In this document: positions 21,782-35,428 of the stretch, one piece after another
Layout: each line of letters opens with the position of its first letter
Numbering within the stretch: position 1 is the stretch's first letter
Origin: a virus
Lineage: Duplodnaviria; Heunggongvirae; Uroviricota; Caudoviricetes
DNA: 35,428 bases
Virus record (IMG/VR): IMGVR_UViG_2923360383_000002
Strand: one strand, 5' to 3'
Notes under the pieces: generated by a model
Seen by the model: the letters and a program-made list of their open reading frames with translations, nothing else
Database searches by the model: none
What the model was told of the DNA's origin: nothing
Translations under genes and position numbers: made by a program

Positions 21782-22321
21782 ATGGATATTAAAGATAAAA
21801 TCAATACCATTTTGTTATGTGACATTGCCATCCACCTAGGTATCGAAACTGATATTGATCCACAGCTTGTTAAATATGCTGTGTCATCTGGTAATGATTG
21901 GGTTATCAAGGCCGAATATTCACATTTGGATGTTGACGAACCAAGTAAAGAAGATCGTGATTTTGTTACTGCTGTCTTGAATATGTATCGCGGACTTTCC
22001 AATGCTTTCAGGAAACTTAGTGATGACGAGCAAAAAGAATTAGTCCGTGACCATCATCTAAAAATACATGATGGGGCAATTCAGCTCCCAGGTTTCGACG
22101 GTAATAATGAATGCGATTACTTCAGTATCATTGAGGCATATCAGAAAATTGATCGCTTCCCCGAACAGAAACAGCCCATTGCCAATACTCATTCACGTAC
22201 AGAACATCTCTATAACGCAATGCTTGATGAGTTTAAGAAAATTGACGCTGTAAATCGAAGCTGGGATTTATCGAAGGAAGAACTGGCATCCATTCTTTCC
22301 ACAGCTCCACGCAGTTTCTAA
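21782..22321 (+). CDS. Hypothetical protein, possibly YfbU-family-like; plus-strand cargo gene between lysis and packaging modules
   Basis: ATG with AGAGGG RBS; AT-rich; weak pattern resemblance to YfbU family (recollection only). Confidence 0.4.
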   Translation: MDIKDKINTILLCDIAIHLGIETDIDPQLVKYAVSSGNDWVIKAEYSHLDVDEPSKEDRDFVTAVLNMYRGLSNAFRKLSDDEQKELVRDHHLKIHDGAIQLPGFDGNNECDYFSIIEAYQKIDRFPEQKQPIANTHSRTEHLYNAMLDEFKKIDAVNRSWDLSKEELASILSTAPRSF

Positions 22322-22326
22322 GTGCT

Positions 22327-22593
22327 TTAGGCGGGTTTCCAACCCGCCTTATTATGCTCGTATATAGAGAAGGAAGCACCCAAATTAACCAGCGCGGATT
22401 TCTTTTCCTCAATACGGCTGTTAAGTTCAGCAACTGCATGCGGGCGTATGGCCTCAAGAAAAGCACTATATTGATAGGCAGACTGGATTGTCACACCAAG
22501 CCCTGCACCACTTTCCAGTATACCTTTCTGTCGCTGTAGCTCTTTCATCTCGTTATAGATGTAATGTGCGTTACTTAGGTTTTCTACGTTCAC
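22327..22593 (-). CDS. Hypothetical protein (88 aa) downstream of Rz
   Basis: ORF begins with GTG at 22593 (alternative ATG at 22548); convergent with the 21782-22321 gene. Confidence 0.35.
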   Translation of the reverse strand: MNVENLSNAHYIYNEMKELQRQKGILESGAGLGVTIQSAYQYSAFLEAIRPHAVAELNSRIEEKKSALVNLGASFSIYEHNKAGWKPA

Positions 22594-22748
22594 GCCCTAA
22601 GTTCTTCCTGCAGTTAGCCTGCACTGATTTGTTATGCGCCAATATGTCCCGCTTCGTCTGTTGCATTATCATAAGTAATAGCGTAGGTTGACACCTTGGC
22701 TCTCTTTCGCCACCGGCGAATCTTTAGCGGATTATCCTTGGCCGGTTT

Positions 22749-23231
22749 TTATCTGAGACATTGCTCACGAATGTATAGCTGTGCCCCTTCCAGTTGCTTC
22801 TGCATCGTCATCAACCGTTCTCTGAGGGTGAAATAATCCCGTTCAGCTGTGTCTGCCAGTCTGGGGCTGGTTGCATTATCCACGCTGGTGGGTCCGGTGG
22901 CTTCACGCACGGCTGCGGAGCAACTGGCATTGACCCGCAGGCGCTTACGACCAGCGGCAACATCAGCGCGCAGAGTTTCATTTTCAGCTTTCGCATTGGC
23001 TAATTCTCTCGAGTACTTTGCATCGAGCGCAGCAACATCACGCTGACGCTGCTGCATGTCAGCGATGGTGGCGGTCAGCTGCTTCAGCTCACTGACTTTT
23101 TTATCACGCTGTTCTTTGTAGGTGATGGCGTTATCACGGTAATGATTGACCGCCCACGACAGGCAGACGATGATGCAGATAACCAGAGCATAAATAATCG
23201 CGGCGACTCTGCTCACTGATCTATTCCCCAA
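22749..23231 (-). CDS. Rz: Spanin inner-membrane subunit Rz
   Basis: [30 protein letters not shown] and [16 protein letters not shown] match lambda Rz. Confidence 0.9.
22811..22996 (-). CDS. Rz1: Spanin outer-membrane lipoprotein Rz1 (embedded in Rz, +1 frame)
   Basis: Lipobox LVVSAC and proline-rich [30 protein letters not shown], as in lambda Rz1. Confidence 0.85.
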
Positions 23232-23746
23232 CAGGCTAATGCGCTTTCTTGGTCACGACGAATAACCTGTCCATAGCAGTTATTTGAACGTATGCGGCAA
23301 TCGCGCCCACCATCTTTTATCCACCAGCGAATCGCCTCGCATGCGCCCTTACGATCACCAGCATTCAGCCGCTTATAAAACGTCGATGGAAAACACTTAC
23401 CGGGGCCAATGTTATAGGGACAAAATGACGCGATACCCGCTTTTTGTGGTTCGGTCAGTGGTACTTTAATATTGCGCTCCACCCATGCCAGCGCCTTATC
23501 ACGCTCAATGGCGTTGACCTGGTCGCATTTTTCCTTCGACAGTTTCATACCGGGAAAAACGGGTTTTCCATCCACCATCGTGGCACCCCGACAGATGGTC
23601 CAGATGCCGGAACCATCGCGGTATGCCGTTGTGTGGTTACCTTCTTTTTCATCCAGAAACTGGTCGAGAATATCAGGCGCGGGCGCACCGACGGCAATCA
23701 GTGCCAGAACGGCAGCCGACAGGCCGTATCTGATTTTTGCGTTCAT
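23213..23746 (-). CDS. SAR endolysin (T4-lysozyme-type, phage 21 R-like)
   Basis: N-terminal signal-anchor-release helix ([14 protein letters not shown]) and catalytic E-x8-D-x5-T triad ([16 protein letters not shown]). Confidence 0.85.
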
Positions 23747-23809
23747 GGATATTTATCAGGATTTATCGGTTTCTGCCCACGGACAGGTTTATCTGTTCCG
23801 GTCAGTGAC

Positions 23810-24160
23810 TTAAGGTTGTGATTCCGGAGGAGTCTTCAGAGAACCAGTAATTCTTCCTGGTAGCTTTCCTTTGTAGGTTATCCACACATTCTGCGCCTCT
23901 AAAATTACGGGGCGCGTTTCTGGCAACAGCTCGTCCCCTTCACATAACCCGGCAGCAACATCCAGGAAGACCTGTCTGATGCTCCTTCTGGCTGCTGCCT
24001 CATAAAACTCCAGCGCGGCACCTTCAACACGGTCCAGCGAGATGTCCAGGTCAAAAATTTCACCGTCAAAGCGTTTTTTGTCCCGTAACGCTAAAGTTAC
24101 CGTAACTTTATTCTCAAAATTGCGGATCCCTTTCACAATCAGTTCATAGTTTTGAGTCAT
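23810..24160 (-). CDS. Hypothetical protein (116 aa) inserted between holin and endolysin
   Basis: Own GGGGAGAG RBS 4 nt after the holin stop; no recognisable family. Confidence 0.5.
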   Translation of the reverse strand: MTQNYELIVKGIRNFENKVTVTLALRDKKRFDGEIFDLDISLDRVEGAALEFYEAAARRSIRQVFLDVAAGLCEGDELLPETRPVILEAQNVWITYKGKLPGRITGSLKTPPESQP

Positions 24161-24164
24161 TGAA

Positions 24165-24380
24165 TTACTCTCCCCGTGCAGCCTTACGCTTGTCTTCTCT
24201 GATTTTGAAGTACAGATTTGTCAGATAAGTCAGGAAGCCCAGAACCAGACTCCCCAGTACACCAATCGCAGCCCACTGTGACGGACTGACCTGATCAAGC
24301 CACTGTAAAAACCAGTAGCCAGCACTGCCTGCGGAGGTGCCGTAGGCAATGCCCGTTGAAATTTTGTCCATGGATTTCAT
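24165..24380 (-). CDS. Pinholin, phage 21 S-type (class II holin with dual start)
   Basis: [63 protein letters not shown] is essentially the S21 sequence; GGAGGTG RBS. Confidence 0.9.
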
Positions 24381-24671
24381 AGCCTCACCTCCGCAAATAA
24401 CGGATGGCGTAGTTTTACACTGAGAAATGAAAGGGATTTGAAAAGAAAAAACCGCAAAAACGGGCGAAACGATATATACAGTAAGGAAAGCACTCTATCC
24501 AACAAACCACCCACAGTTAATCGGAATAAAAGCAGAGTGCTTATGAATGATCGCCTGCCCGAAGGTTAGTATTTCTGCACAGCAATTTTGCAAAAAAAGC
24601 GATCATTCATAACTTAAACGTCTTTCAGTCACTCCGGGATTTCCCATCATCGCAGACTGAAAGACTCTAAC

Positions 24672-24746
<75 letters not shown>

Positions 24747-24749
24747 ATA

Positions 24750-24825
<76 letters not shown>

Positions 24826-24827
24826 AC

Positions 24828-24904
24828 TGGACCGCCACCGGGGACTCGAACCTCGCACACTCAACTTAAAGGGTTGACGCTCTTTCCTGATGAGCTAGTG
24901 GCGG
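24828..24904 (-). tRNA. tRNA-like gene; anticodon UUU (Lys) by position, with atypical C33 and mismatches - possibly divergent or a pseudo-tRNA
   Basis: 7-bp acceptor stem (CCGCCAC/GTGGCGG), TTCGAGT T-loop, CCA end; anticodon loop CCTTTAA; T-stem has one mismatch. Confidence 0.45.
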
Positions 24905-24905
24905 T

Positions 24906-24981
24906 TGGTGGCCCTTGCTGGATTTGAACCAGCGACCTGGCGATTATGAGTCGCTCGCTCTCACCACTGAGCTAAAGGGCC
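24906..24981 (-). tRNA. tRNA with CAU anticodon, ileX-like (Ile2 if lysidine-modified, otherwise Met)
   Basis: GGCCCTTTAGCTCAGTGGTGAGAGCGAGCGACTCATAATCGCCAGGTCGCTGGTTCAAATCCAGCAAGGGCCACCA; resembles E. coli ileX more than elongator Met. Confidence 0.8.
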
Positions 24982-24990
24982 GGGCGCAGG

Positions 24991-25019
24991 ATAATAACGT
25001 TACGAAATCAATGTTGCAA
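24991..25019 (-). promoter_or_regulatory. Candidate sigma70 promoter for the tRNA cluster
   Basis: On the minus strand, TTGCAA, 17-nt spacer, TATTAT, ending about 9 nt before the first tRNA 5' end. Confidence 0.4.
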
Positions 25020-25277
25020 GCATTCAAAAATCACCTGGTTAAAAATCACCCTTACCTCCTCCACCAGCGCATTCACCATAATTATCAGAGATAAACGACA
25101 AAAAAACGCACGGCAGCGGTTTTAAGCTGTATGCCGAAGTGACCACTCTTAACACAATAAACAAGAAAATGCGGACCGCGTTAGTGATTTTATCTTCTTT
25201 TCTAGGTAAATTAAGTCTCTACAAATTTAGCCATCAACAAGATATGCATTAATCAATGAGGCATAGCAAGGACCGTC

Positions 25278-26159
25278 ATGGAGAAGTCAACTTCCTTTAA
25301 GGTGTTTTATGACGCCAATGATAAAGAATTGTCAAAGCATGCTATTGACGCTGAAACACTTGGTAAATCAATACTTTCCATGACAACTCTTATTAATAAA
25401 GCTGATAGCTTGTTAAATGAGGGCAACAAATCTGTAAAAATTTTAGTCACTGCCCCCATCCAGAAAGGATCTGTGGGTATTGCATATACTGTAGTGCAAC
25501 TCCTACCGCATGCAATTGACGTTCTGCAAACTATCGGGATTGTTGGAACTGTGGGCGCAACAGCTCATGCCACCGCTTTATCGTTAATAAGACAATTAGG
25601 CTCAAAAAAAGTTGTTTCGATTACCAAAAAAGCAGGAACAGATAAGGCTGTTCTTGAATTTGAAGATGGTGAGATTGAATGCTCATCAGCAGTTGCAACC
25701 TTGGTAACTGAGCCAACAATTCGGGATGCGTTGATTTCTGTTGTTCAGGCTCCTTTAGATGGTAAAGACTCTCCCATTTTTAAAATTGTAGATGAGAATG
25801 ATAAAGTTTTGCTCAAGCTTGAAGGAGAGCAAACTGAAGAGATTAAACCCCTTCCCAGAGGGACGCTTTTGACCAAAACAGTTGAAGAAAAAGAGGTTAA
25901 TGTAAAATTTACCCAAGTTAACTTTCATAGTGAGAAGGGGTGGAGGATGGACTACAACCAAGATGAGCACTCCGTACTACTTACAGACTATGAGTTTTTA
26001 GCTAAAGTAAGGCAAGCAGAGGGAACGATCACTAGTGAAGATATGTTTTCTGTGCTTCTAGAAACAACACGTACAACTTCCGCACGAGGACAAACAGAAA
26101 AGTATGTTATCAAGAAAGTACTTCGTCATCGCGTGATTCAAGGGAAAAAATTGATCTAG
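25278..26159 (+). CDS. Hypothetical soluble protein (293 aa), first gene of the plus-strand cargo operon
   Basis: ATG with AAGGA RBS; AT-rich codon usage unlike flanking phage genes; no Walker or other motif recognised. Confidence 0.6.
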   Translation: MEKSTSFKVFYDANDKELSKHAIDAETLGKSILSMTTLINKADSLLNEGNKSVKILVTAPIQKGSVGIAYTVVQLLPHAIDVLQTIGIVGTVGATAHATALSLIRQLGSKKVVSITKKAGTDKAVLEFEDGEIECSSAVATLVTEPTIRDALISVVQAPLDGKDSPIFKIVDENDKVLLKLEGEQTEEIKPLPRGTLLTKTVEEKEVNVKFTQVNFHSEKGWRMDYNQDEHSVLLTDYEFLAKVRQAEGTITSEDMFSVLLETTRTTSARGQTEKYVIKKVLRHRVIQGKKLI

Positions 26160-26174
26160 CTTTGGTAGAAACTA

Positions 26175-26438
26175 ATGATTCAGCAACAGCTTTTACAAAT
26201 CGTTTTTTGGTTGGGGGTGCTTGTAAGTCTCCCGACCTTCTATCGCTTTGTTTATGCTGGTTCCGCGTTGTTGTGGCGTAAAATTTTTCCTACAAAAATC
26301 GTAGAACTAAGGTTTTACAGTGCTGAACGCATGCTTGAAAAAACGATTACTATCCACTTAGATGCTAAAGATGGAAAGAAGATCGTTGAGCTAATTGATG
26401 ATGCAACCGCGCACAGGCAGTCAAATAATGAGCGGTGA
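26175..26438 (+). CDS. Hypothetical small membrane protein (87 aa, one N-terminal hydrophobic helix)
   Basis: Starts 16 nt after the ORF A stop; hydrophobic segment LLQIVFWLGVLVSLPTFY. Confidence 0.5.
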   Translation: MIQQQLLQIVFWLGVLVSLPTFYRFVYAGSALLWRKIFPTKIVELRFYSAERMLEKTITIHLDAKDGKKIVELIDDATAHRQSNNER

Positions 26439-26826
26439 TAAAAAAAGCATTTTAAGTAGTAATTCTGGTCTAACAACAGGCGGGATTGGCGCAGTTCTAA
26501 CTACATTGGTACCACTATTGGCGCCTGACCCTAATAGTGAATGGAGAGCTTTTTTGTATGCCCTCGCCCCATTAGTGTCAGCAATGCTAACCTACATTAT
26601 GTTGTATGTTATCAATCGACATGGACTTGAGTCTCCAGCCGAAGCCGCCCTAAGAAATCGCCTTGAGCGAGATTTAAAAGGTATTGATGAGCAACTGAAA
26701 AGCCCTCATCTAAGCGAGAAATTTAAAGCTGAGCTTATTGCTGATCGGGAAGAAACTGTTAGAAAGATTGTTAACATTGGTAAGAATGTAGAAGTTTTAC
26801 CTATTGAAGTTACTAAAGAAGAATAA
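26398..26826 (+). CDS. Hypothetical membrane protein (about 132-142 aa, two hydrophobic helices plus charged C-terminal region)
   Basis: Overlaps the ORF B 3' end (alternative starts ATG 26398 or ATG 26428); hydrophobic segments GIGAVLTTLVPLLAP and AFLYALAPLVSAMLTYIMLYVI. Confidence 0.5.
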   Translation: MMQPRTGSQIMSGDKKSILSSNSGLTTGGIGAVLTTLVPLLAPDPNSEWRAFLYALAPLVSAMLTYIMLYVINRHGLESPAEAALRNRLERDLKGIDEQLKSPHLSEKFKAELIADREETVRKIVNIGKNVEVLPIEVTKEE

Positions 26827-26845
26827 AACGGCCCTTAGGCCGTTT
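26825..26845. terminator. Hairpin between the convergent plus-strand operon and the Q gene (likely bidirectional terminator)
   Basis: AAAACGGCC-ctta-GGCCGTTT; T-rich on the minus-strand side (TTTTATTCTTC). Confidence 0.55.
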
Positions 26846-26861
26846 AGAATATTCAAGAGGT

Positions 26862-27230
26862 TCACAATTCCATCTCGAGACGAACATCAAGCATTGAGAG
26901 ACAGCCATCGATAAAGCCCTCTGCCATCTGGATCTCTATCCGTATCAATTTCTCATCTTTTTTACGTGCCTTTGCAATCTTCCGTTTCGAGATGCCGTAT
27001 AGGTAATGAGCCACAATCAGAGAATGTTCGTACGGTTTTTTCTTTTTTAGTAAAGCAAGGCAGCTCTCAATGATAAGAGCGTCATCGTCTGTACAAGAAA
27101 TTCGTGTTTTACTTATCTGCGGCATAAGCCCCTTAAAACCAGCTGCTATAGGTGAATAGTCTACCCCAGAGCTATCACTCGCAGCCCATGCCCCCCACCG
27201 CTCAAGAACCATCTGAATATCACGCACCAT
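26862..27230 (-). CDS. Late-gene antiterminator Q (DLP12 QuuD-like family)
   Basis: MVRDIQMVLERWGAWAA...IAAGFKGL...AEGFIDGCLSMLDVRLEMEL resembles the QuuD-type Q protein as I recall it. Confidence 0.8.
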   Translation of the reverse strand: MVRDIQMVLERWGAWAASDSSGVDYSPIAAGFKGLMPQISKTRISCTDDDALIIESCLALLKKKKPYEHSLIVAHYLYGISKRKIAKARKKDEKLIRIEIQMAEGFIDGCLSMLDVRLEMEL

Positions 27231-27591
27231 CTTTACTATCTCTTATTACGTAAATCTTCACGCCCAACCGACCACCAGGAACGAGCTGACCGCGCACAAT
27301 ATTGATTTCATCAAACTGCTCGTCGTCTATAAGTAGTCCGGCATGCGTCAGCGCATCCAGTGGTGCTTTCAGGATATTGTCCAGGTCACGACGGCGCTTA
27401 TCCGGTGGCTCTGCAATCACCTTTATCGCCAGCCTTCCGGACAGGTTTGATTTTAACCGCTGCCGGCGAACAATTAGCGCCACATCACGGCGATAACGCT
27501 CACCGACTTTTGATACAAAATATGTGTTGCCACGACGTCGCCAGTAAGTATTCACCGTCGGCGGATAAGGCAAAACAAACTCAATACGCAT
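27220..27591 (-). CDS. rusA: Holliday junction resolvase RusA
   Basis: RusA-like motifs (RRRDLDNILKAPLDALTHAGLLIDDEQ); start taken at ATG 27591 with AAGAGG RBS. Confidence 0.85.
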   Translation of the reverse strand: MRIEFVLPYPPTVNTYWRRRGNTYFVSKVGERYRRDVALIVRRQRLKSNLSGRLAIKVIAEPPDKRRRDLDNILKAPLDALTHAGLLIDDEQFDEINIVRGQLVPGGRLGVKIYVIRDSKDGA

Positions 27592-27603
27592 CAATAACCT
27601 CTT

Positions 27604-28653
27604 TTACCCAAGCACGCCGGTTGCAAAGGCGTGATCAAGAAAACGAAAAATTAAATCAACCTGGGAACCATGCTTTTCTTCGAACGCCAGCGGATCCGCA
27701 TGAAGTTCGTTGTGATGTTCCCGGCACAACGGTAGCGTGAAAATATCGTGGGCCTTTGTTCCCATCCCTCCCTGACCGTGACCAATCAGGTGATGGGGAT
27801 CGTCGGCTGGCTGACCACAACACGCACACGGCTGTGTCTTCACCCAGCGCGTATATTTCTCATTTACCCAACGGCGACGTTTAGGTCGCCTCATGAAAGA
27901 TTCCGGAGAGTCCGGATCAACGGCAATGCTGACCACCGCCTTTTCCAGTGGTGGGTTCTGTTGCTGGTGGAAGTGAGGCAACGGCGCAAGATTTTTTGTG
28001 CGCTGCTTTAGTATGCTGGTGGCGGTCTGCTCTCCCGGTACGATGTCGCTTTCGCGGTACACCGCGCGGATTTTTTCCGCACGTAACCCCAGAGAACGAC
28101 GTAATACTGCCTCCGGAAGCGCGTCCGCCACTTGATTGCAGACCGCCCACCAGGATAATTCAGCCAGCGATAACTCCCGCTCCTGCGTGCCATTCATTGC
28201 ATGGCGTATGACGTCAATCATCCATGCTGCCAGGTTTTGTTGAGCAAGTTGCTCAAGTGATTCGGATGTCTGGTCACGCAGCTGGTTATCGCAGTGCCAG
28301 CACAACACCATCGCGCCGGTGCCGTAACGATGTATGACGGTTTCACTGTGATGATAGTCACCATGAGGCCACTGGCAGGATTTGACATGACGCAACAGCC
28401 AGCCAGACAGTGCACCAGCGCCGCCAGCAGCACGAATCACACGCTCATTGCTGAAAAACCGCAGTAATGATTTATCCTCCGCCAGCGGCTGGCGAACGGC
28501 AGGGACGATGCCGGACGGCAGACCACGCATGCTTTTCGGTTCCGGCTCCACCAGCACTCGAGGGTTATGGAATACCTGCATGGATTCACGGCCTGGTTTA
28601 AGGACCACCAGCCCAAGTTCCGGTACCGGAACAGGTCGAAGTAATACCCGCAC
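27604..28653 (-). CDS. DUF968-type protein (Qin YdfU-like) with C-terminal Cys/His HNH-like motif
   Basis: 349 aa; C-terminal QPCACCG...HHLIGHGQGG...CREHHNELH; GTG start with GGAGGT RBS; position upstream of rusA as in Qin/DLP12. Confidence 0.6.
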   Translation of the reverse strand: MRVLLRPVPVPELGLVVLKPGRESMQVFHNPRVLVEPEPKSMRGLPSGIVPAVRQPLAEDKSLLRFFSNERVIRAAGGAGALSGWLLRHVKSCQWPHGDYHHSETVIHRYGTGAMVLCWHCDNQLRDQTSESLEQLAQQNLAAWMIDVIRHAMNGTQERELSLAELSWWAVCNQVADALPEAVLRRSLGLRAEKIRAVYRESDIVPGEQTATSILKQRTKNLAPLPHFHQQQNPPLEKAVVSIAVDPDSPESFMRRPKRRRWVNEKYTRWVKTQPCACCGQPADDPHHLIGHGQGGMGTKAHDIFTLPLCREHHNELHADPLAFEEKHGSQVDLIFRFLDHAFATGVLG

Positions 28654-28654
28654 G

Positions 28655-28933
28655 TTACCTCCAGATGCGTTGCTGGAATGTGCGGGACGGACGCGGTGGG
28701 CGCTCGGAGTACGGCAGCCTGACGTAGATTATCCAGTGACGATAATCGAGGCTGAGGGCTTTCTTAACCTCGTATCCACGCCTGCGGTAACACTGAATTA
28801 TCCATTCAGCCTGCTCTTCAGTGCATGGAGGATGCTGGAACCAGTCTGATTTGAATGCGTGAAAACGCCGTCCGCACCTACTGGCAAAGACGGCAGAATC
28901 ATTAGAATTGTGTAATTTGGTATCGTGCGCCAT
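28655..28933 (-). CDS. Hypothetical protein (about 92 aa from MAHDTKL; track ORF extends to 29062)
   Basis: ORF between hok and the DUF968 gene; start uncertain. Confidence 0.4.
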   Translation of the reverse strand: MAHDTKLHNSNDSAVFASRCGRRFHAFKSDWFQHPPCTEEQAEWIIQCYRRRGYEVKKALSLDYRHWIIYVRLPYSERPPRPSRTFQQRIWR

Positions 28934-29100
28934 CGGTTGTCTCTGCTGGCGCAGCAGGTGCCAGTTGTTCAGGCTGGCGTGCGAATTGTAAACCAGAATG
29001 CCAGGAAAAAACAAAACCCGCCGAAGCGGGTTACGTGCGGGTGCGTTGAGGATGCCTGACACATCAGAGGTGGCGAGGGATTTCTCCCCCGCCAGGTCTC

Positions 29101-29256
29101 TTACTCCTCAGGTTCGTAAGCTGTGAAGACAGCGACCTCCGTCTGGCCGGTTCGGATTCGTACCTCGCAGAGGTCTTTCCTCGTTACCAGTGCCGTCACA
29201 ATGACGGTTAAACAGATGACGATCAGGGCGATTAGCATCGCCTTTTGCTGCTTCAT
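29101..29256 (-). CDS. hokD: Hok/Gef-family type I toxin (HokD/RelF-like, 51 aa)
   Basis: MKQQKAMLIALIVICLTVIVTALVTRKDLCEVRIRTGQTEVAVFTAYEPEE matches HokD; AGGAG RBS; in-frame upstream extension to 29313. Confidence 0.85.
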   Translation of the reverse strand: MKQQKAMLIALIVICLTVIVTALVTRKDLCEVRIRTGQTEVAVFTAYEPEE

Positions 29257-29493
29257 AGCCTGCTTCTCCTTGCCTTTCGGCGCGTAAGAGGCTAACCTAG
29301 ATTTGCCGTTCATAGATTGAGCCTCAGATTAATGTTAAGCGTCTTGCCGGACGCGTAATGTTAACTGGGGCTTTTCTCTATCTGCCTTTCAGTGTTCATG
29401 CCTGAGACAGATAGCCTCAAGCACCCGCAGCCATTCTACTTAACTCACGTCACCTCGCCAATATGAAATCAATCAGAAAGGTGATCCATAAAA

Positions 29494-30180
29494 TCACTCC
29501 TTCTCTTCTTTTCCGTAGTGGAGTTGGCCAATTTTGATAAGAGGGCGTCCCTGAGATTTGCGGTGTAGATTGGTATCGCGCAGAGAATACACACAGCCAC
29601 AATATTCCTGCTGATAGAATTTTTCGCGCTTGCTGATTTCAATCATACGGGACGAGCCGCCCTGCTTGCGCCAGTTATAATCCCAGTACACCATACCCGG
29701 ATAATGCGCAACAGCTCGCCGCCCACACTCGTTAACCTGCTGCATATTTTTCCAGCGTGAAATGCCCAGTGAACTACTGATCACACTGAAACCATTTTCA
29801 GCAGCGTACAACGCTGTCCGCTCAAAACGCATGTCAAAACACATGGTACAACGGATCCCCCTCTCAGGCTCCCATTCCATTCCTTTGGCACGTTCAAACC
29901 AGTTGTCGGTGTCGTAATCAGCATCGATAAACGGCACGCCGTGTTGTTCAGCAAAGCGAATATTTTCATCCTTACGAATTAAATACTCTTTCTGAGGATG
30001 AATGTTCGGGTTGTAGAAAAAGATGGTGTAGTCGATTCCCGAGGCCTGAAGCGCCTCCATCACTTCACCGGAACATGGAGCACAGCAAGAGTGCAGTAGT
30101 AGTTTGTTTGCCCCGTTTGGGAGCTCCAATTTAGGCCGTTTGAAATCAGCAATAGTCATAAATATTTTTATTGGGGTCAT
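29494..30180 (-). CDS. DUF208-family protein (QueH-like, epoxyqueuosine reductase family)
   Basis: N-terminal [11 protein letters not shown] cysteine motif and further Cys residues (CTMCFD, CGCVYS) typical of DUF208/QueH as I recall; unverified. Confidence 0.45.
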
Positions 30181-30333
30181 GAAAATAGCACAGAGTGTAG
30201 CATCAGAGCAGGGCTATCGGGAATATATGTCTAAATCTGGTAATATCTGGTTTTGACGCAAAGCGGACAACCACGCTGGCTCTACCCTGCGCCATGAAAA
30301 TGTCAATTCACATCTGAACTAATGCTCTTTAAT

Positions 30334-30759
30334 CTAGTAACGTCTAAAATACCTAACATTTCCTTGATAAAATGCCAGTACACGCTGCATAGCTTCGCTC
30401 TTCCGGCACTCGCGACAGATTATGTTCATACGCCTGTCGTAGCGGCGTATTTCGCCGTCTGGTAACGACCAGATAAGGTCCGGATCAACCACTGCAGGTT
30501 TCTTCAGCTTTGCCCTTGAGAGCTTTTTACGGGCATTTTGCCAGTCCTTACGCGCCTGTTCAGACGGGAATAACCCGTAACCAGAGTTGTATACATCGCC
30601 ACTGGCAACCAGTTCTCTGGCCAGAACGCTCATCAGATATCTTGTCGCACCTGTCTTGGCTTCCAGTTGCCGTAACGTCTCGCGCCCACTCCGGCGTACT
30701 AGCTCAACAACCTGCCCTTTAATTTTTTCCCGCTCTTCTTGTGTAAATACTTTTGCCAT
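30334..30759 (-). CDS. Hypothetical protein (141 aa)
   Basis: Start taken at ATG 30759 with GGAGGTG RBS (the track start is a TTG). Confidence 0.45.
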   Translation of the reverse strand: MAKVFTQEEREKIKGQVVELVRRSGRETLRQLEAKTGATRYLMSVLARELVASGDVYNSGYGLFPSEQARKDWQNARKKLSRAKLKKPAVVDPDLIWSLPDGEIRRYDRRMNIICRECRKSEAMQRVLAFYQGNVRYFRRY

Positions 30760-30774
30760 AAGCACCTCCGGCAA

Positions 30775-31545
30775 TCACTTTTCCGATACAACACGGCGGG
30801 AAGAATCAGTAATCTGTCGAACAATATCCCGGTGCTTGTTCAACTCCCGCAGCGCGGCGCAGACTCGCTCCCACTTCTGAACATCACTTTTCGCCCTGCG
30901 CAGCGCCAGGTTTGCCCTGCGAAGGGACGGAAAAATCAGCTCATCTGCTTGCGTTTCGGTAAACGATGGCAACGGCTGCACAATGTCCGCCACAGTTTCT
31001 GTTTTAATTTCTTCCTGTGTTGCGGCTTCCCGGACTGGTAACGCAGCACCTGCTGGCTGAGGAAAGGCCTTACCATCACTTTCCGTTACCAGCGCGGCTT
31101 TCGGCTCTGCTGGTAAATTATCGCCCGGCATGCAGTAACGAAATTTACCGTTCTGATTAACGCGTGCCAGCCGCCCCGTTGCGGTTACCACCGCCAGCGT
31201 GGAAGCAACCTTGCGAGTACTGACACCGAACTTACCCGCCAGTTCCTCACACGTTTTAGCCCCATCCTGACCGATAAACTCAATCATCATGTCTGCGGTA
31301 ACTTTTTGTTCGACCTCCCCGGTCAGCATATCCTGTGCTTCAGATTTTACTGGCCGCTCTTCGGTTACCCGGGATTCACCTTCGCCAGCCAGAAACCAGG
31401 TGTGACCAGTTTTATCAACGACGCCATTTCTTTTGAGTTCCCACAGCTCGTTAACAGCCTCTTCACGACTGATTCCAAGGCGAGCTGCCACCACATGTGA
31501 AGAGGCTTTTTTCAGTGCTTTCAGTGCGTCAGATACGGTTTCCAT
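30775..31545 (-). CDS. Hypothetical protein (256 aa), acidic with N-terminal helix-turn-helix-like region
   Basis: GGAGG RBS; sits between the replication genes and the nin-type region. Confidence 0.5.
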   Translation of the reverse strand: METVSDALKALKKASSHVVAARLGISREEAVNELWELKRNGVVDKTGHTWFLAGEGESRVTEERPVKSEAQDMLTGEVEQKVTADMMIEFIGQDGAKTCEELAGKFGVSTRKVASTLAVVTATGRLARVNQNGKFRYCMPGDNLPAEPKAALVTESDGKAFPQPAGAALPVREAATQEEIKTETVADIVQPLPSFTETQADELIFPSLRRANLALRRAKSDVQKWERVCAALRELNKHRDIVRQITDSSRRVVSEK

Positions 31546-31566
31546 TAAAATTTCCTCCGGACAAAA

Positions 31567-32313
31567 TTACTTCACAACCCTCATATTGCTGACATTTGGA
31601 CGCCAGCTATCCCAGTTAAACGTCACCCATCGACCACCGTTCATGGTCATGCGGTCCATAATCCTCTCACCAAGAAGCGTACTCATTGCGGCATGATTCA
31701 GGTTTGTTAACATCCCGACACTGCACAGTGATGCTGTCCGGCGATCAATTATCTGGTGCAATACCACCTGCTCGTTTTTCGTCTCCCGCTGAACGCCTAT
31801 TTCATCCAGGACCAGCAAATCAACCCCGCAAAGCTCCTGTAAAAATTTTTCCCCGGATTTGCCGTTGTCGTAGCTGTCATGCAACACGCTCATGACGTCA
31901 GACACGGTGACGATAATCACGCTGCGCCCCTTCACCATCAGCCGGTTGCCCATCGCCGCTGCAAGGTGATTTTTCCCGGTGCCGGTTTTACCGCTGAACA
32001 CAAAATTCGTGCACCCGGTCATCAGTTCGTCAGCTATGGATTTGGCCTGGCTCAGCGCGTATTTTTGCCCGTCGTTCTGCACCTGATAATTTGCAAACGA
32101 GCATTTGCTGTGCAGAGGCTGGATGCCCGAACGATTCAGGATTTTTTCCACCCGCAACTGGCGATTCTGGCGGTTAATCTCCTCGCTGCGTTTTCGTCCT
32201 TCAGCAAGTTGCCATTCCCGCCACTCCTCCACCGTCCGGTACGGTGGAACCGACCCCTGTGGTGCAAGTCTGCGAATACGTTCAAGAACCCCAACTGCCG
32301 CAATGTTTTTCAT
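31567..32313 (-). CDS. DnaC/IstB-like replication ATPase (helicase loader; Rac YdaV-like)
   Basis: Walker A GKTGTGKNHLA and Walker B LLVLDEIG; immediately downstream of the initiator gene. Confidence 0.8.
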   Translation of the reverse strand: MKNIAAVGVLERIRRLAPQGSVPPYRTVEEWREWQLAEGRKRSEEINRQNRQLRVEKILNRSGIQPLHSKCSFANYQVQNDGQKYALSQAKSIADELMTGCTNFVFSGKTGTGKNHLAAAMGNRLMVKGRSVIIVTVSDVMSVLHDSYDNGKSGEKFLQELCGVDLLVLDEIGVQRETKNEQVVLHQIIDRRTASLCSVGMLTNLNHAAMSTLLGERIMDRMTMNGGRWVTFNWDSWRPNVSNMRVVK

Positions 32314-32319
32314 GACACG

Positions 32320-33282
32320 TCACCCCCTGAATCCCGGCGGTATTTCAGTGTCCGGTTCAGAAATGTGATTCACGCAACGCTGCGCAGGCGAACGCCCCAG
32401 GCGGATAACCAGTTCATCCCATTTTTCCCGGAGTTTTGCCGGACTCATGATGTTTTTTACCCAGAACGAATCCCGCTGGAGACGCCCAAACATTTCACAA
32501 ATTTGTCTGTGAGTTCTGCCATCCAGCATCCGCATTGTGCGAACGTCATTGGCCCATGCTGTCCAGTTGGGTTCTTTCGGTCTAGTGATCTCGCCATCAT
32601 CGCTGGCCGCCTGCTCGTAAAGACTCACGATTCGTCCCCAGATCCACTGTGCGCACACCAAATCTTCCTGACTTCCCCACTGGCGTTTTTTCGCACTGAA
32701 CACAACCGCGTCAGGGTGTCGGGTTAAAAAATCCTGTTCAGCCGTCTGCGGGTCCGGTTGCGAAGCGTCCGGACAAGAAGATCTTTTATCTGACGGATCA
32801 GGTTTTAATACTGACGGATCGGGGTCAATCATCGCCCCCCTAATCGGCAGTTTTTTATCAACAGTTGATCCATCAAAATTTGACGGGTCAACCGTTGAGG
32901 GGTCAATATTTGACGGGTCAACTGTTAACGGGTCATTTTTTGCCGGGCTAATTTTTCTTTTCGGTTTATATGACTCACGCGCCGCCGCCGCAGCTGCTTC
33001 GAGTTTTTCCACATTAAGCCGATAGATATTGCTTACATTACGCCCACCGACCTTACGCTCTTCCTTCGTCAGCCAGCCCTCTTTCGCCAGTTCTGCAATA
33101 GCCGATTTCACTGTGGATTCACTTCTTGCACCGATCTGACGCCGGATAGTTTCAATGGCAGGCCATGACACGCCCTCGTCATTGCTGTAGTCTGCAAGAC
33201 GGGCCATAACCGCCACCCTGGATAAGATCATGCCGGTGAAGGCGCACCCTTCCCAGACAAGACCATGAAGCTTGCTGCTCAT
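32320..33282 (-). CDS. Replication initiator (O-like / Rac YdaU-like) with N-terminal winged helix and internal repeat peptide
   Basis: Start taken at ATG 33282 with GGGGG RBS; repeated DPSNIDPSTVDPSNFDGSTVD segment is encoded by the iteron DNA. Confidence 0.7.
   Translation of the reverse strand: MSSKLHGLVWEGCAFTGMILSRVAVMARLADYSNDEGVSWPAIETIRRQIGARSESTVKSAIAELAKEGWLTKEERKVGGRNVSNIYRLNVEKLEAAAAAARESYKPKRKISPAKNDPLTVDPSNIDPSTVDPSNFDGSTVDKKLPIRGAMIDPDPSVLKPDPSDKRSSCPDASQPDPQTAEQDFLTRHPDAVVFSAKKRQWGSQEDLVCAQWIWGRIVSLYEQAASDDGEITRPKEPNWTAWANDVRTMRMLDGRTHRQICEMFGRLQRDSFWVKNIMSPAKLREKWDELVIRLGRSPAQRCVNHISEPDTEIPPGFRG
32790..32940. repeat. Iteron-like direct repeats (candidate origin of replication) inside the initiator gene
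   Basis: At least six copies of a TGACGG(A/G)TCA-like unit, followed by an AT-rich stretch at about 32934-32970. Confidence 0.55.
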
Positions 33283-33304
33283 AAAACCCCCGAACACCGT
33301 GCTT

Positions 33305-33730
33305 TTAGTGCATCACCACAGCATTCCCTGCCGGGCCGCCGCGATTCATCTGGTCATACAAAACAACCGCTGACGCAACAAAATCATCGACATCCTTCAC
33401 CAGCCGATCCCTCCGTTCGACGATCTCACGGTAATATTCAGAACTGTGGCTGCGCATACGGGCCACCAGCAAAGGCGGCATCGCCTTTTCGATCGCCGGT
33501 AACAGAGCCTGCATTTTTTCAACAGCATCAGGGGTGTCTTTATCCAGCCAACGGAAAATTTTCTGGGTATTACGGGCCAGGGCTTCCGGATGGCTGTCGT
33601 CATACAGTTCCGGGAACGTCATTCCCAGCTCGAAATACGCTTTGGTAATTTTCGCAGCCGGTACTTTTTCGCCGTCCGGATGCGCCCAGGCATTCATCGC
33701 CATGCGGATGTGTTCATGCTTGATTTTCAT
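33305..33730 (-). CDS. YdaT-like protein (CII-position regulator/toxin family of Rac-type prophages)
   Basis: Starts MKIKHEHI; start overlaps the Cro-like stop (ATGA). Confidence 0.5.
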   Translation of the reverse strand: MKIKHEHIRMAMNAWAHPDGEKVPAAKITKAYFELGMTFPELYDDSHPEALARNTQKIFRWLDKDTPDAVEKMQALLPAIEKAMPPLLVARMRSHSSEYYREIVERRDRLVKDVDDFVASAVVLYDQMNRGGPAGNAVVMH

Positions 33731-33981
33731 GAATCAACTCCCATCAGCTTTTTCGTAGTAGTTTTATTCCTGCCAATAGTTAAAATTGCATCGGCAGAAA
33801 ATAATCCGTTTGATGCAAGAGCGATTTTTTCAGCGTAATTTGTTTCGCCGGTATATTCTGTGCGAGGCAATTTTCCGTTATCCATCCATTTATAGATTGC
33901 TCTTTGGCTGACACCACAAACGTCGGCCACAACAGCAACGCGAACAGTTTTGATTACATCTTCAAGTGTTTTCTGGTTCAT
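33727..33981 (-). CDS. Cro-like / YdaS-like HTH regulator
   Basis: Start ATG 33981 with GAGGGTG RBS (MNQKTLEDV...); HTH-like VCGVSQRAIYKWMDNGKLP; divergent from the repressor gene. Confidence 0.65.
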   Translation of the reverse strand: MNQKTLEDVIKTVRVAVVADVCGVSQRAIYKWMDNGKLPRTEYTGETNYAEKIALASNGLFSADAILTIGRNKTTTKKLMGVDS

Positions 33982-34060
33982 ATCACCCTCACAATGTGAA
34001 CTTTGAGTACATGCTATAACAGAACTGACAGTACATTCAAGAGCGAATATCATTGAACTT
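33982..34060. promoter_or_regulatory. Divergent immunity control region (operators/promoters between Cro-like and repressor genes)
   Basis: 79-bp intergenic region containing two AGTACAT copies. Confidence 0.5.
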
Positions 34061-34480
34061 ATGGTTCATGAAGATAAAGCGCGTAAAGAGTTCGCCAGTA
34101 GGCTTGCGCTAGCCTGTGAAAACGCTGGTTATGAACAACATGGAAGGCAGGCAGAAATTGCCCGTCGAATGAAATTAACACCAAAAGCGGTTAGCAAATG
34201 GTTTAATGGCGAAACAATTCCTCGCCGGGAGAAATTAAGGGAATTAGCAACACTAATAGGAACAACACCAACCTATCTTTTGGGAGAGGATACAGAAGAA
34301 AGTGGACAGGTACGTTTCTATCAGGAGTTAAATCCAAGACAAAAAATCATCATTGACCTTCTGGACGAGCTCCCTGACAGTGAGACAGATGAACTTTTAA
34401 AAACTCTTGAAGAGAAAAAACAGAAGTACAATGCAATTTACGAAGAGTTAGCACGAAAGAAAAAACAAAAAGCCTCTTAA
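34061..34480 (+). CDS. CI-like prophage repressor (XRE-family HTH, RacR-like; no peptidase domain)
   Basis: HTH-like GRQAEIARRMKLTPKAVSKWFNGETIP; divergent from the Cro-like gene. Confidence 0.7.
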   Translation: MVHEDKARKEFASRLALACENAGYEQHGRQAEIARRMKLTPKAVSKWFNGETIPRREKLRELATLIGTTPTYLLGEDTEESGQVRFYQELNPRQKIIIDLLDELPDSETDELLKTLEEKKQKYNAIYEELARKKKQKAS

Positions 34481-34916
34481 ACCAGCATAAATCCGGTAGC
34501 GCCTTCCTCCGGGTTTGTGCTTCACTTTATCCCATCTCATTTTTTTACACACAAAATGTACTAAAAGTACTTTACAAAAATGAACGCAAAGTACATTATA
34601 TACCTGCCACCCACCCCGCCCCACAGAATGCAGGGCAATACTTCGAGTTACCAGGCAGTGGTCAGGGGTTAAGTAGCCAGCCCGAGGCGTAAGAACATGA
34701 CGGCAGGGTTCAACTTTAATAACTATGCAGCAGGTTTTTGTTCCGCTACCCCGGCGTTAAGGGGAAACAGAGGATTTCTCAGTGGGCGAAGTCAAACATC
34801 AGAATGGAAGGCATCCCGGGATCGGCAAAGAAGCAGCAATGGCGCTTTATATTGACATCAGCGCCATTGCCGGACAGGTAAGAATTATCAGAGCGGTAAC
34901 TAAGCGGTATGCGCCT

Positions 34917-35117
34917 TTACTTCAGAAAGTCTCTGGTGAGTGCACCGAAGATATTGTCAACGATTTCGTCATCGAACTGCGAGGACTCATCTTCAGTTAC
35001 AAGGTGACCACAATTTTTGCAGATGGCTCCCGCGAAACTGTCAGAGCCCTGCGGCTTAAAGGATGTGTCAAAGACTTCGCCACCACATTCTGGGCAAGAA
35101 AACTTGATTGTACTCAT
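34917..35117 (-). CDS. Small zinc-ribbon protein (about 66 aa)
   Basis: CPECGG...CKNCG motif; ATG at 35117 with GAGAGGAAA RBS. Confidence 0.45.
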   Translation of the reverse strand: MSTIKFSCPECGGEVFDTSFKPQGSDSFAGAICKNCGHLVTEDESSQFDDEIVDNIFGALTRDFLK

Positions 35118-35209
35118 AACCAATTTCCTCTCGAGTAACAGACCCCTCAGAGGATACCACCTCGCCTGACGTGGTTAAAAGCAGGCAACGCTAACCACAA
35201 GGAGCCGAC

Positions 35210-35428
35210 ATGCAGAAACGAGAACCCGTCATCATCGCGCCAGACTATACCGATGATGAACTTTATGAGTGGATGCGCCAGAAAATTAATGCAGCGCAGG
35301 ATCTGAAATGGGCCAATGAAGCCAGGGCTAAGCAGGCTGAAAATCTGTCCGCTCTGGAGCAGGATATCACCAATCTGGAAAAAGCAGCGGCATTAAGCAT
35401 TGCCAGAATGATTACATACCCGCGTTAA
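35210..35428 (+). CDS. Hypothetical protein (72 aa)
   Basis: Complete ORF ending at the window edge, preceded by AAGGAG; no family recognised. Confidence 0.35.
   Translation: MQKREPVIIAPDYTDDELYEWMRQKINAAQDLKWANEARAKQAENLSALEQDITNLEKAAALSIARMITYPR

Follow-up and report, generated by a model that had tools for sequence, protein, structure and literature searches.

The 35,428-nt stretch of viral DNA analysed here (hereafter the window) carries on its minus strand a 70-codon open reading frame (MNGKSRLASYAPKGKEKQA followed by MKQQKAMLIALIVICLTVIVTALVTRKDLCEVRIRTGQTEVAVFTAYEPEE), the C-terminal 51 residues of which constitute a Hok peptide that starts with MKQQKAML at the ATG in position 29256 and ends with EPEE. 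The ORF matches the Pfam signature HOK_GEF (PF01848) over its residues 25-66 (E = 3e-23, 81.6 bits for a cutoff of 22), with an alignment that covers profile positions 1-42 of 42. The 51-residue peptide is identical in alignment to HokD/RelF of E. coli K-12, to which an earlier note on this DNA had matched it from the letters alone. On the same strand, the Rfam model RF01794 matches over its full length (model positions 1-157, 29251-29426(-), 110.6 bits for a gathering score of 59, E = 1.6e-24). As this RNA-level match is independent of the Pfam match, the two together place the identification of Hok far beyond chance. The NCBIfam Hok and HokA models gave matches below their curated cutoffs (48.5 vs 73) and were therefore left out of the family assignment. 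PADLOC returned no match for Hok, and a weak Pfam match to DUF6232 (E = 0.006, below cutoff) was disregarded.

Positions 22000-35428 of the window recur with 100% identity in the E. coli 94EC chromosome, inside a Qin-like lambdoid prophage with the gene order dicB, ydfC, cI/cro-like regulators, replication genes, DUF1627, DUF977, QueH, hokD, DUF968, RusA, Q, tRNAs, holin and lysozyme. The upstream neighbour of hok is a QueH/DUF208 gene (29494-30180(-), E = 1e-65), and relBE genes are absent, in agreement with the earlier note on both counts. Downstream, on the same strand, come a gene for a 92-residue protein, the DUF968, RusA and antiterminator Q genes and then four tRNA genes. The cassette is located in the nin region (QueH-hok-orf92-DUF968-RusA-Q) of this Qin-like lambdoid E. 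coli prophage. The 92-residue ORF between hok and DUF968 (28655-28933(-)) has no Pfam or NCBIfam match. In some relatives (K-12, PPompW and a Rac-type phage), a rem gene is found directly downstream of hok, and the window has none.

The presence and foldability of every hok/mok/sok element are supported (Table 1). Judging from its sequence, the locus very probably forms a hok/mok/sok type I toxin-antitoxin cassette that is complete and canonical and falls in the hokD/hokW allele group. Neither the family nor this allele group is new, and the cassette brings little new biology. RefSeq annotates only the 51-residue hokD CDS on the identical 94EC sequence (L131, 7245-7400, corresponding to 29101-29256 of the window), leaving mok and Sok unannotated, and among phage records this ORF goes by the names MokW, HokD, gef, 'host killer protein' or 'hypothetical'. 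With an automated label 'hokD' that comes without mok or Sok, an intact type I toxin-antitoxin locus can be mistaken for an orphan toxin gene.

Table 1. Observed and predicted features of the hok/mok/sok locus, in window coordinates
Feature	Position	Strand	Description
hok promoter	29433-29461	-	-35 TTGGCG, 17-nt spacer, -10 TAGAAT; consensus scan
Full-length hok mRNA, predicted (~419 nt)	29008-29426	-	5' end from Rfam model position 1 and homology to the R1 hok mRNA 5' end (GGGUGCUUGAGG)
tac (translational activator)	29415-29426	-	mRNA nt 1-12; pairs with fbi when the RNA is full-length and with ucb once it is truncated
ucb (upstream complementary box, anti-SD)	29365-29372	-	mRNA nt 55-62; in the full-length fold its partner is the mok SD region
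mok SD, sokT target hairpin and dcb	29288-29325	-	GAGG 29325-29322; dcb 29293-29288; hypervariable Sok-recognition loop 29323-29299
mok reading frame, 70 codons	29101-29313	-	in frame with hok; start offset 57 nt
hok toxin CDS, 51 residues	29101-29256	-	SD AAGGAG 29271-29266
GGAGAAGCAGGCTAT, unoccupied target site	29255-29269	-	15-mer, single copy in the window; 15-bp duplication flanks the insert in K-12-type Qin prophages
3'-UTR hairpin	29071-29094	-	mRNA nt 333-356; homologue of the stem at which R1 hok mRNA is trimmed
fbi (fold-back inhibition), CCUCAACGCACCC	29039-29051	-	complementary to tac
Intrinsic terminator of the hok transcript	29006-29032	-	7-bp GC-rich stem, UUCG loop, T run; placed by scan at 29032-29015
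sok promoter	29270-29298	+	-35 TTGCCT 29270-29275, 17-nt spacer, -10 TAACCT 29293-29298; read from the sequence
Sok antisense RNA, predicted (~77 nt)	29305-29381	+	14-nt single-stranded 5' tail, long hairpin, GGGGCUUUUCUCU tail

Promoters, transcripts and predicted RNA folds

The -10 box of the hok promoter is conserved in related loci and ends 6 nt before the inferred start site at 29426. RF01794 bears the name 'sok antitoxin', but its match is on the hok-sense strand. Since it runs from GGGUGCUUGAGG, the mRNA 5' end, to the hok AUG, what it describes is the leader of the hok mRNA and not the Sok RNA strand. A literal reading of this 'sok' match would thus give both the wrong strand and the wrong extent for Sok. 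The same match vindicates the existence of the leader region that the earlier note had placed at 29314-29493, with other limits, as the mRNA leader extends from 29426 to 29257 and does not begin at 29493.

The predicted 419-nt hok transcript has a minimum free energy (MFE) of -173.8 kcal/mol (z = -6.9 relative to shuffles). In its MFE fold, tac pairs with fbi (nt 376-388), and ucb with the mok SD region (nt 100-107). In RNAs truncated at their 3' ends to 29066, 29062 or 29058, nt 1-8 of tac pair with nt 54-60 in the MFE fold, and the SD (nt 102-107) with dcb (nt 134-139). Removal of the 3' end thus switches the predicted MFE structure to one where tac forms a stem with ucb, and the mok SD a stem with dcb that gives the sokT hairpin. 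A closed-to-open rearrangement of the same kind has been described for the hok mRNA of plasmid R1 (PMC9841398). By analogy with the latter, the 3'-UTR hairpin is likely to represent the 3' end of the truncated mRNA. The earlier note had expected fold-back structure of an autonomous hok/sok locus, and the predicted tac-fbi and ucb-mok SD pairings, together with the refolding of the truncated form, agree with this expectation. Its placement was nevertheless off, as fbi and the terminator are 3' of the ORF, outside the 29101-29493 segment.

Conservation of these pairings was assessed over 90 unique homologues. The tac-fbi pairs are 98.6% canonical (34-51% in slid controls), and the window-derived structure as a whole has 92.7% canonical pairs, compared with 34-42% in slid controls. 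Changes on both sides of a pair occurred at 50 pairs, as against 19-36 in controls, a comparison that is biased towards the structure because the latter was derived from one of the aligned sequences. If the homologues are made to adopt the structure of the window, pairing in the sokT hairpin reaches only 62%, and compared with the Rfam consensus its upper stem contains gaps and non-canonical pairs.

The hok terminator is the sole terminator-like site on the minus strand from the cro-like gene (~34000) to Q (27230), and it may also serve as an early-operon terminator upstream of Q.

The sok promoter is convergent with that of hok and is located inside the mok extension. A simple sigma-70 consensus scan, which found the hok promoter, missed it because its -10 hexamer TAACCT matches the consensus at only three of six positions. 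In 82 unique related IMG/VR loci, both hexamers (TTGCCT or TTGACC; TAACCT or TAATCT) are conserved, as is the distance between them, and in the window they match those of sokW, the validated promoter. We accepted the sok promoter on the basis of this homology and conservation. The ends of Sok were set by homology to annotated K-12 sokC, and the predicted 5' end is at mok +9, as is that of annotated sokC relative to mokC. The predicted RNA folds with -29.9 kcal/mol (z = -5.1), and its 5' tail is complementary to the region of the mok start codon. A Sok RNA and its promoter are thus predicted at positions homologous to those of K-12 sokC and of validated sokW. The antisense RNA that the earlier note had postulated upstream of hok therefore finds a good candidate, although its promoter falls within the mok extension itself. 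Examination of both strands yielded a predicted promoter on each, that of hok by scan and that of sok by reading and homology, as well as a predicted structured RNA on each.

Relatives of the cassette and the relBE insertion in K-12-type prophages

We aligned the locus with those of Stx2 phage I, a Rac-type phage, PPompW and an IncY phage-plasmid, with K-12 hokA to hokE and with an R1-type plasmid locus. All cassette elements appear in register across this alignment. Four primers and probes from the hokW-sokW study were looked up in the locus of Stx2 phage I, and it contains them all.

The hokW-sokW locus of Sakai prophage 5 (Sp5) and 933W-type Stx2 phages (PMC8621323) shares 92.6% identity with the window across mRNA nt 1-390. 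The two loci share the hok and sok promoter hexamers, the extended Sok hairpin, an in-frame 70-codon mok, a 51-residue Hok, fbi and a lambdoid prophage as carrier. They differ in the Sok-recognition loop and first mok codons (29323-29299), which are only 68% identical between flanks at 94-95%, meaning that their Sok 5' tails differ as well. The C-terminus of Hok reads FTAYEPEE in the window and FVDYESEK in HokW, and the window has an intrinsic terminator after fbi, which hokW lacks. Finally, the window locus resides in the nin region upstream of DUF968-RusA-Q, whereas that of the Stx2 phage is near the attachment site and an EaA-like ORF. For hokW-sokW, the toxicity of Hok was shown experimentally, both the hokW and sokW RNAs were detected by Northern blotting, and sokW expressed from its own promoter neutralises hokW toxicity (PMC8621323). 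Mutation of the sokW -10 box, with a mutagenic primer that alters positions 1, 3 and 6 of TAACCT, abolishes this neutralisation (PMC8621323). In Sp5, HokW is made after RecA-dependent induction, and phage release was approximately doubled (PMC8621323), the sole direct evidence on a biological role.

The hok/mok/sok (parB) locus of plasmid R1, the founder of the family, has the same order of elements as the window (tac, ucb, mok SD, sokT, dcb, hok SD, 3' processing hairpin and fbi), and the sok promoter of both is convergent, its boxes 17 nt apart. The Hok peptide of R1 has diverged from that of the window, and its identity to HokW is 44% (PMC8621323). Plasmid R1 has an out-of-frame mok (offset 58 nt) and a longer 5' hairpin, whereas mok is in frame in the window, whose Sok hairpin has an extra 16-nt extension. 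The R1 locus is plasmid-borne, with a role in post-segregational killing, whereas that of the window is in a prophage.

K-12 hokC/mokC/sokC (gef) resembles the window in its in-frame mok with a 57-nt offset, in the relative position of the Sok 5' end and in its closely related Hok peptide. It differs in being part of the chromosomal backbone rather than of a prophage, with an IS186 element located 20 bp past the hokC stop codon. No match to fbi is present in its aligned 3' region, and it lacks the Sok hairpin extension found in the window.

In the Qin prophage of K-12, hokD (relF) is the third gene of the relBEF operon. Window positions 29270-29007, which encompass the hok SD, CDS, 3' hairpin, fbi and terminator, are 97.7% identical to K-12, and downstream synteny to DUF968 (ydfU) and Q is common to both. 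The homology to K-12 Qin is limited to this segment, as K-12 lacks everything 5' of the hok SD, namely the promoter, tac, ucb, the Sok gene and the mok start. Consistently, the hok leader was not found in the 9-kb stretch of MG1655 Qin that was examined. It was reported that K-12 hokD is devoid of the canonical components owing to rearrangement (PMC12214031), and that an ancestral hokD ORF, some 70 codons long, was the site of relBE integration (PMC6379469).

Three IMG/VR loci, L079 among them, have a split arrangement, and the insertion was traced in L079 (9280-12610), L132 (4500-7850) and L001 (4276-6359). In L079, the hok leader and Sok region run up to GGAGAAGCAGGCTAT, which is followed by a 3301-bp insert and then by the same 15-mer leading into hokD. 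The ends of the insert form imperfect inverted repeats that match at 18 of 25 positions, a score that none of 20,000 random pairs reached. The insert codes for a transposase with an rve_3 integrase core (ISNCY family in RefSeq), followed by ydfW, flxA, ydfV, relB and relE. We thus attribute the loss of the 5' parts of K-12 hokD to the insertion of this relBE-carrying ISNCY element at GGAGAAGCAGGCTAT. The integration of relBE into hokD is itself published, as cited above, and none of the papers in the library searched ties relBE or hokD to ISNCY.

In the collection of 5426 complete E. coli genomes, at least 80% of the 501-nt locus query is present in 3847 and the hok leader (at least 80% of mRNA nt 1-100) in 4126. 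The relE-hokD junction was found in 1166 genomes. The junction between an orphaned leader and the IS was found in 693, and there the leader and Sok gene survive 3.3 kb upstream. Taken together, the homology break, the anatomy of the insert and the genome counts indicate that the K-12 relBE-hokD arrangement is derived, and that the relBE-less state is intact and common. The earlier note had implied that the missing relBE genes were an anomaly of the window, and the genome counts reverse this view. The window itself does not belong with the K-12-type relBEF operons, in which hokD directly follows relE, depends on the relB promoter and has neither a hok leader nor a Sok gene of its own, as the window has no relBE, its homology to K-12 ends at 29270 and its insertion target is single-copy and unoccupied. 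The relBE-hokD locus of K-12 is a transposon-disrupted exception, and as such is unsuitable as a reference for judging other hokD-like loci.

Most chromosomal hok loci of K-12 are damaged, hokA, hokC and hokE by IS elements and hokD by rearrangement, and the window cassette might likewise be an inactive relic that is recognizable by sequence but has lost regulated expression of Hok and Sok. The weak match of the sok -10 box to the consensus points in the same direction. In addition, intact chromosomal loci tested in earlier work gave no post-segregational killing, as summarised in bioRxiv 10.1101/2025.08.07.668861, and the biological role is hence uncertain. Such decay nevertheless appears improbable for the window. 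The locus contains no IS or indel, its elements are all intact and in register, and the fold has been preserved while pairs changed on both sides. Of 79 unique related loci, 47 encode exactly the same Hok peptide, and its recognition-region allele is kept in 1631 genomes. Moreover, hokW-sokW, which is nearly identical, is a functional locus (PMC8621323). We therefore retain the complete type I cassette as the preferred reading.

Reading frames, predicted mechanism and Sok-recognition alleles

The in-frame upstream extension that the earlier note took for a mok-like reading frame has the features of one, with an ATG at 29313 preceded 8 nt upstream by a GAGG SD sequence, and K-12 mokC is in frame with hok in the same way. 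Among close relatives, the mok start is offset by 57 nt in 63 loci, giving an in-frame product of 70 residues, by 58 nt in 6 loci, giving an out-of-frame product of 68 residues, and by 56 nt in 9 loci, giving a 19-codon ORF. The upstream start is thus kept in 78 of 79 related loci in variable frames, and the Hok peptide is nearly invariant overall. As both the frame and the first codons of mok vary, the conserved item is an upstream translated start and not the Mok peptide.

These data also bear on whether the real product might be the 70-residue, N-terminally extended protein, acting as a phage membrane or lysis protein without mok-hok coupling. Several phage records annotate only this ORF, as MokW or gef, and the upstream ATG is in frame in the window and in the 63 relatives mentioned above. 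That reading is very improbable, however, as the other relatives start upstream out of frame or with the short ORF, the first five codons or so are the most variable stretch of the locus, and hok retains its own AAGGAG SD and ATG. Moreover, the toxic HokD of K-12 is the 51-residue ORF alone. This peptide, identical to that of the window, is toxic on overexpression (bioRxiv 10.1101/2025.08.07.668861).

The UAC codon of Hok Tyr47 and the G that follows it (UACG) are retained in the window (29116-29118(-)). In the K-12 hokD mRNA, the same Tyr47 position is reportedly subject to low-level (6%) A-to-I editing to Cys (PMC12214031).

A complete cassette would function as follows, with the transcript ends, processing, toxicity and Sok instability of the window locus inferred by analogy with R1 and hokW-sokW. 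The hok promoter would give rise to a stable mRNA of ~419 nt, kept translationally silent by tac-fbi pairing and by masking of the mok SD with ucb, as suggested by the predicted fold and the conserved pairing. In a step modelled on R1, fbi would be lost as the 3' end is slowly trimmed as far as the hairpin at 29094-29071. According to the predicted fold of the truncated RNA, tac would then pair with ucb, and the mok SD would move into the sokT hairpin with dcb. As in R1, ribosomes starting at the mok AUG would open the downstream structure and thereby allow translation of the 51-residue Hok membrane toxin. The convergent sok promoter, presumed constitutive, would produce a short-lived Sok RNA of ~77 nt. 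By comparison with R1 and sokW, its 5' tail would bind the mok start region, block translation of both mok and hok and trigger RNase III cleavage. Should Sok synthesis stop, Hok would be made and would depolarise the inner membrane. Other roles, in prophage retention or in the exclusion of other phages, are possible.

It is scarcely conceivable that hok is a mere passenger expressed by read-through from the early (PR) operon and QueH with no autonomous promoter or antisense control, since, for all that it has the orientation of QueH and the early-right genes and is preceded by no terminator-like site on the minus strand from ~34000 onwards, a promoter-like site is found 7 nt upstream of the conserved mRNA 5' end, tac has to be a defined 5' end, paired with fbi or ucb, in order to work, and the promoter-to-terminator unit is conserved as a block next to varying upstream neighbours. 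QueH is the upstream neighbour of hok in only 9 of 94 related viral loci, so that this slot appears variable. We rejected a functional link between QueH and hok on the same count, their adjacency being incidental.

The 82 unique related loci were collected from IMG/VR (those compared in the mok and Sok-recognition regions comprising L011-L130), and a 15-mer scan of viral contigs gave about a dozen chance matches lacking a hok gene, which were discarded. Along the transcribed unit, sequence variation is highest at mRNA nt 104-128 (29323-29299 of the window), i.e. in the sokT loop and the first mok codons. This peak is the complement of the Sok 5' tail, and it comprises at least 8 common alleles. 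The allele of the window is present in 1631 genomes and that of hokW in 609, and the two co-reside in strains PV15-279 and E2865. Copies per carrying genome amount to 1.05 for the window allele, 1.16 for the hokW allele and 2.09 for leaders. A crude per-genome count revealed no consistent depletion of same-allele co-residence. As the pattern is inconsistent and confounded by phylogeny and prophage immunity, we make no claim on allele avoidance.

To judge from their sequences, allele differences could prevent the Sok of one prophage from silencing the hok of another. A more specific and rather doubtful proposal is that prophage hok/sok cassettes are mutually orthogonal sensors of prophage induction. 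The cassette is co-directional within the early-right transcription unit of the prophage, ~4.6 kb downstream of the cro-like gene, and no terminator-like site separates the two on the minus strand. Given this arrangement, antiterminated early transcription could run head-on into the convergent sok promoter upon induction. If so, it would account for the unexplained RecA-dependent loss of sokW RNA in Sp5.

Additional genes of the prophage are worth mentioning. Alongside QueH, a tRNA-modification enzyme (epoxyqueuosine reductase), it carries the four tRNA genes (24672-24981(-)), which correspond to Gly-tcc, Thr-tgt, Lys-ttt and a tRNA with a CAT anticodon that is assigned to Met by ARAGORN and to Ile by RefSeq. 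A cassette of three genes on the opposite strand (25278-26826(+)) separates Q from the tRNA genes, at the place that stx genes occupy in Stx phages. None of its three proteins has a Pfam match. The gene at 25278-26159(+) encodes a 293-residue protein with a match to PDC-S42, a candidate defence family of PADLOC (E = 4e-27), and this cassette may represent a prophage-borne defence module.
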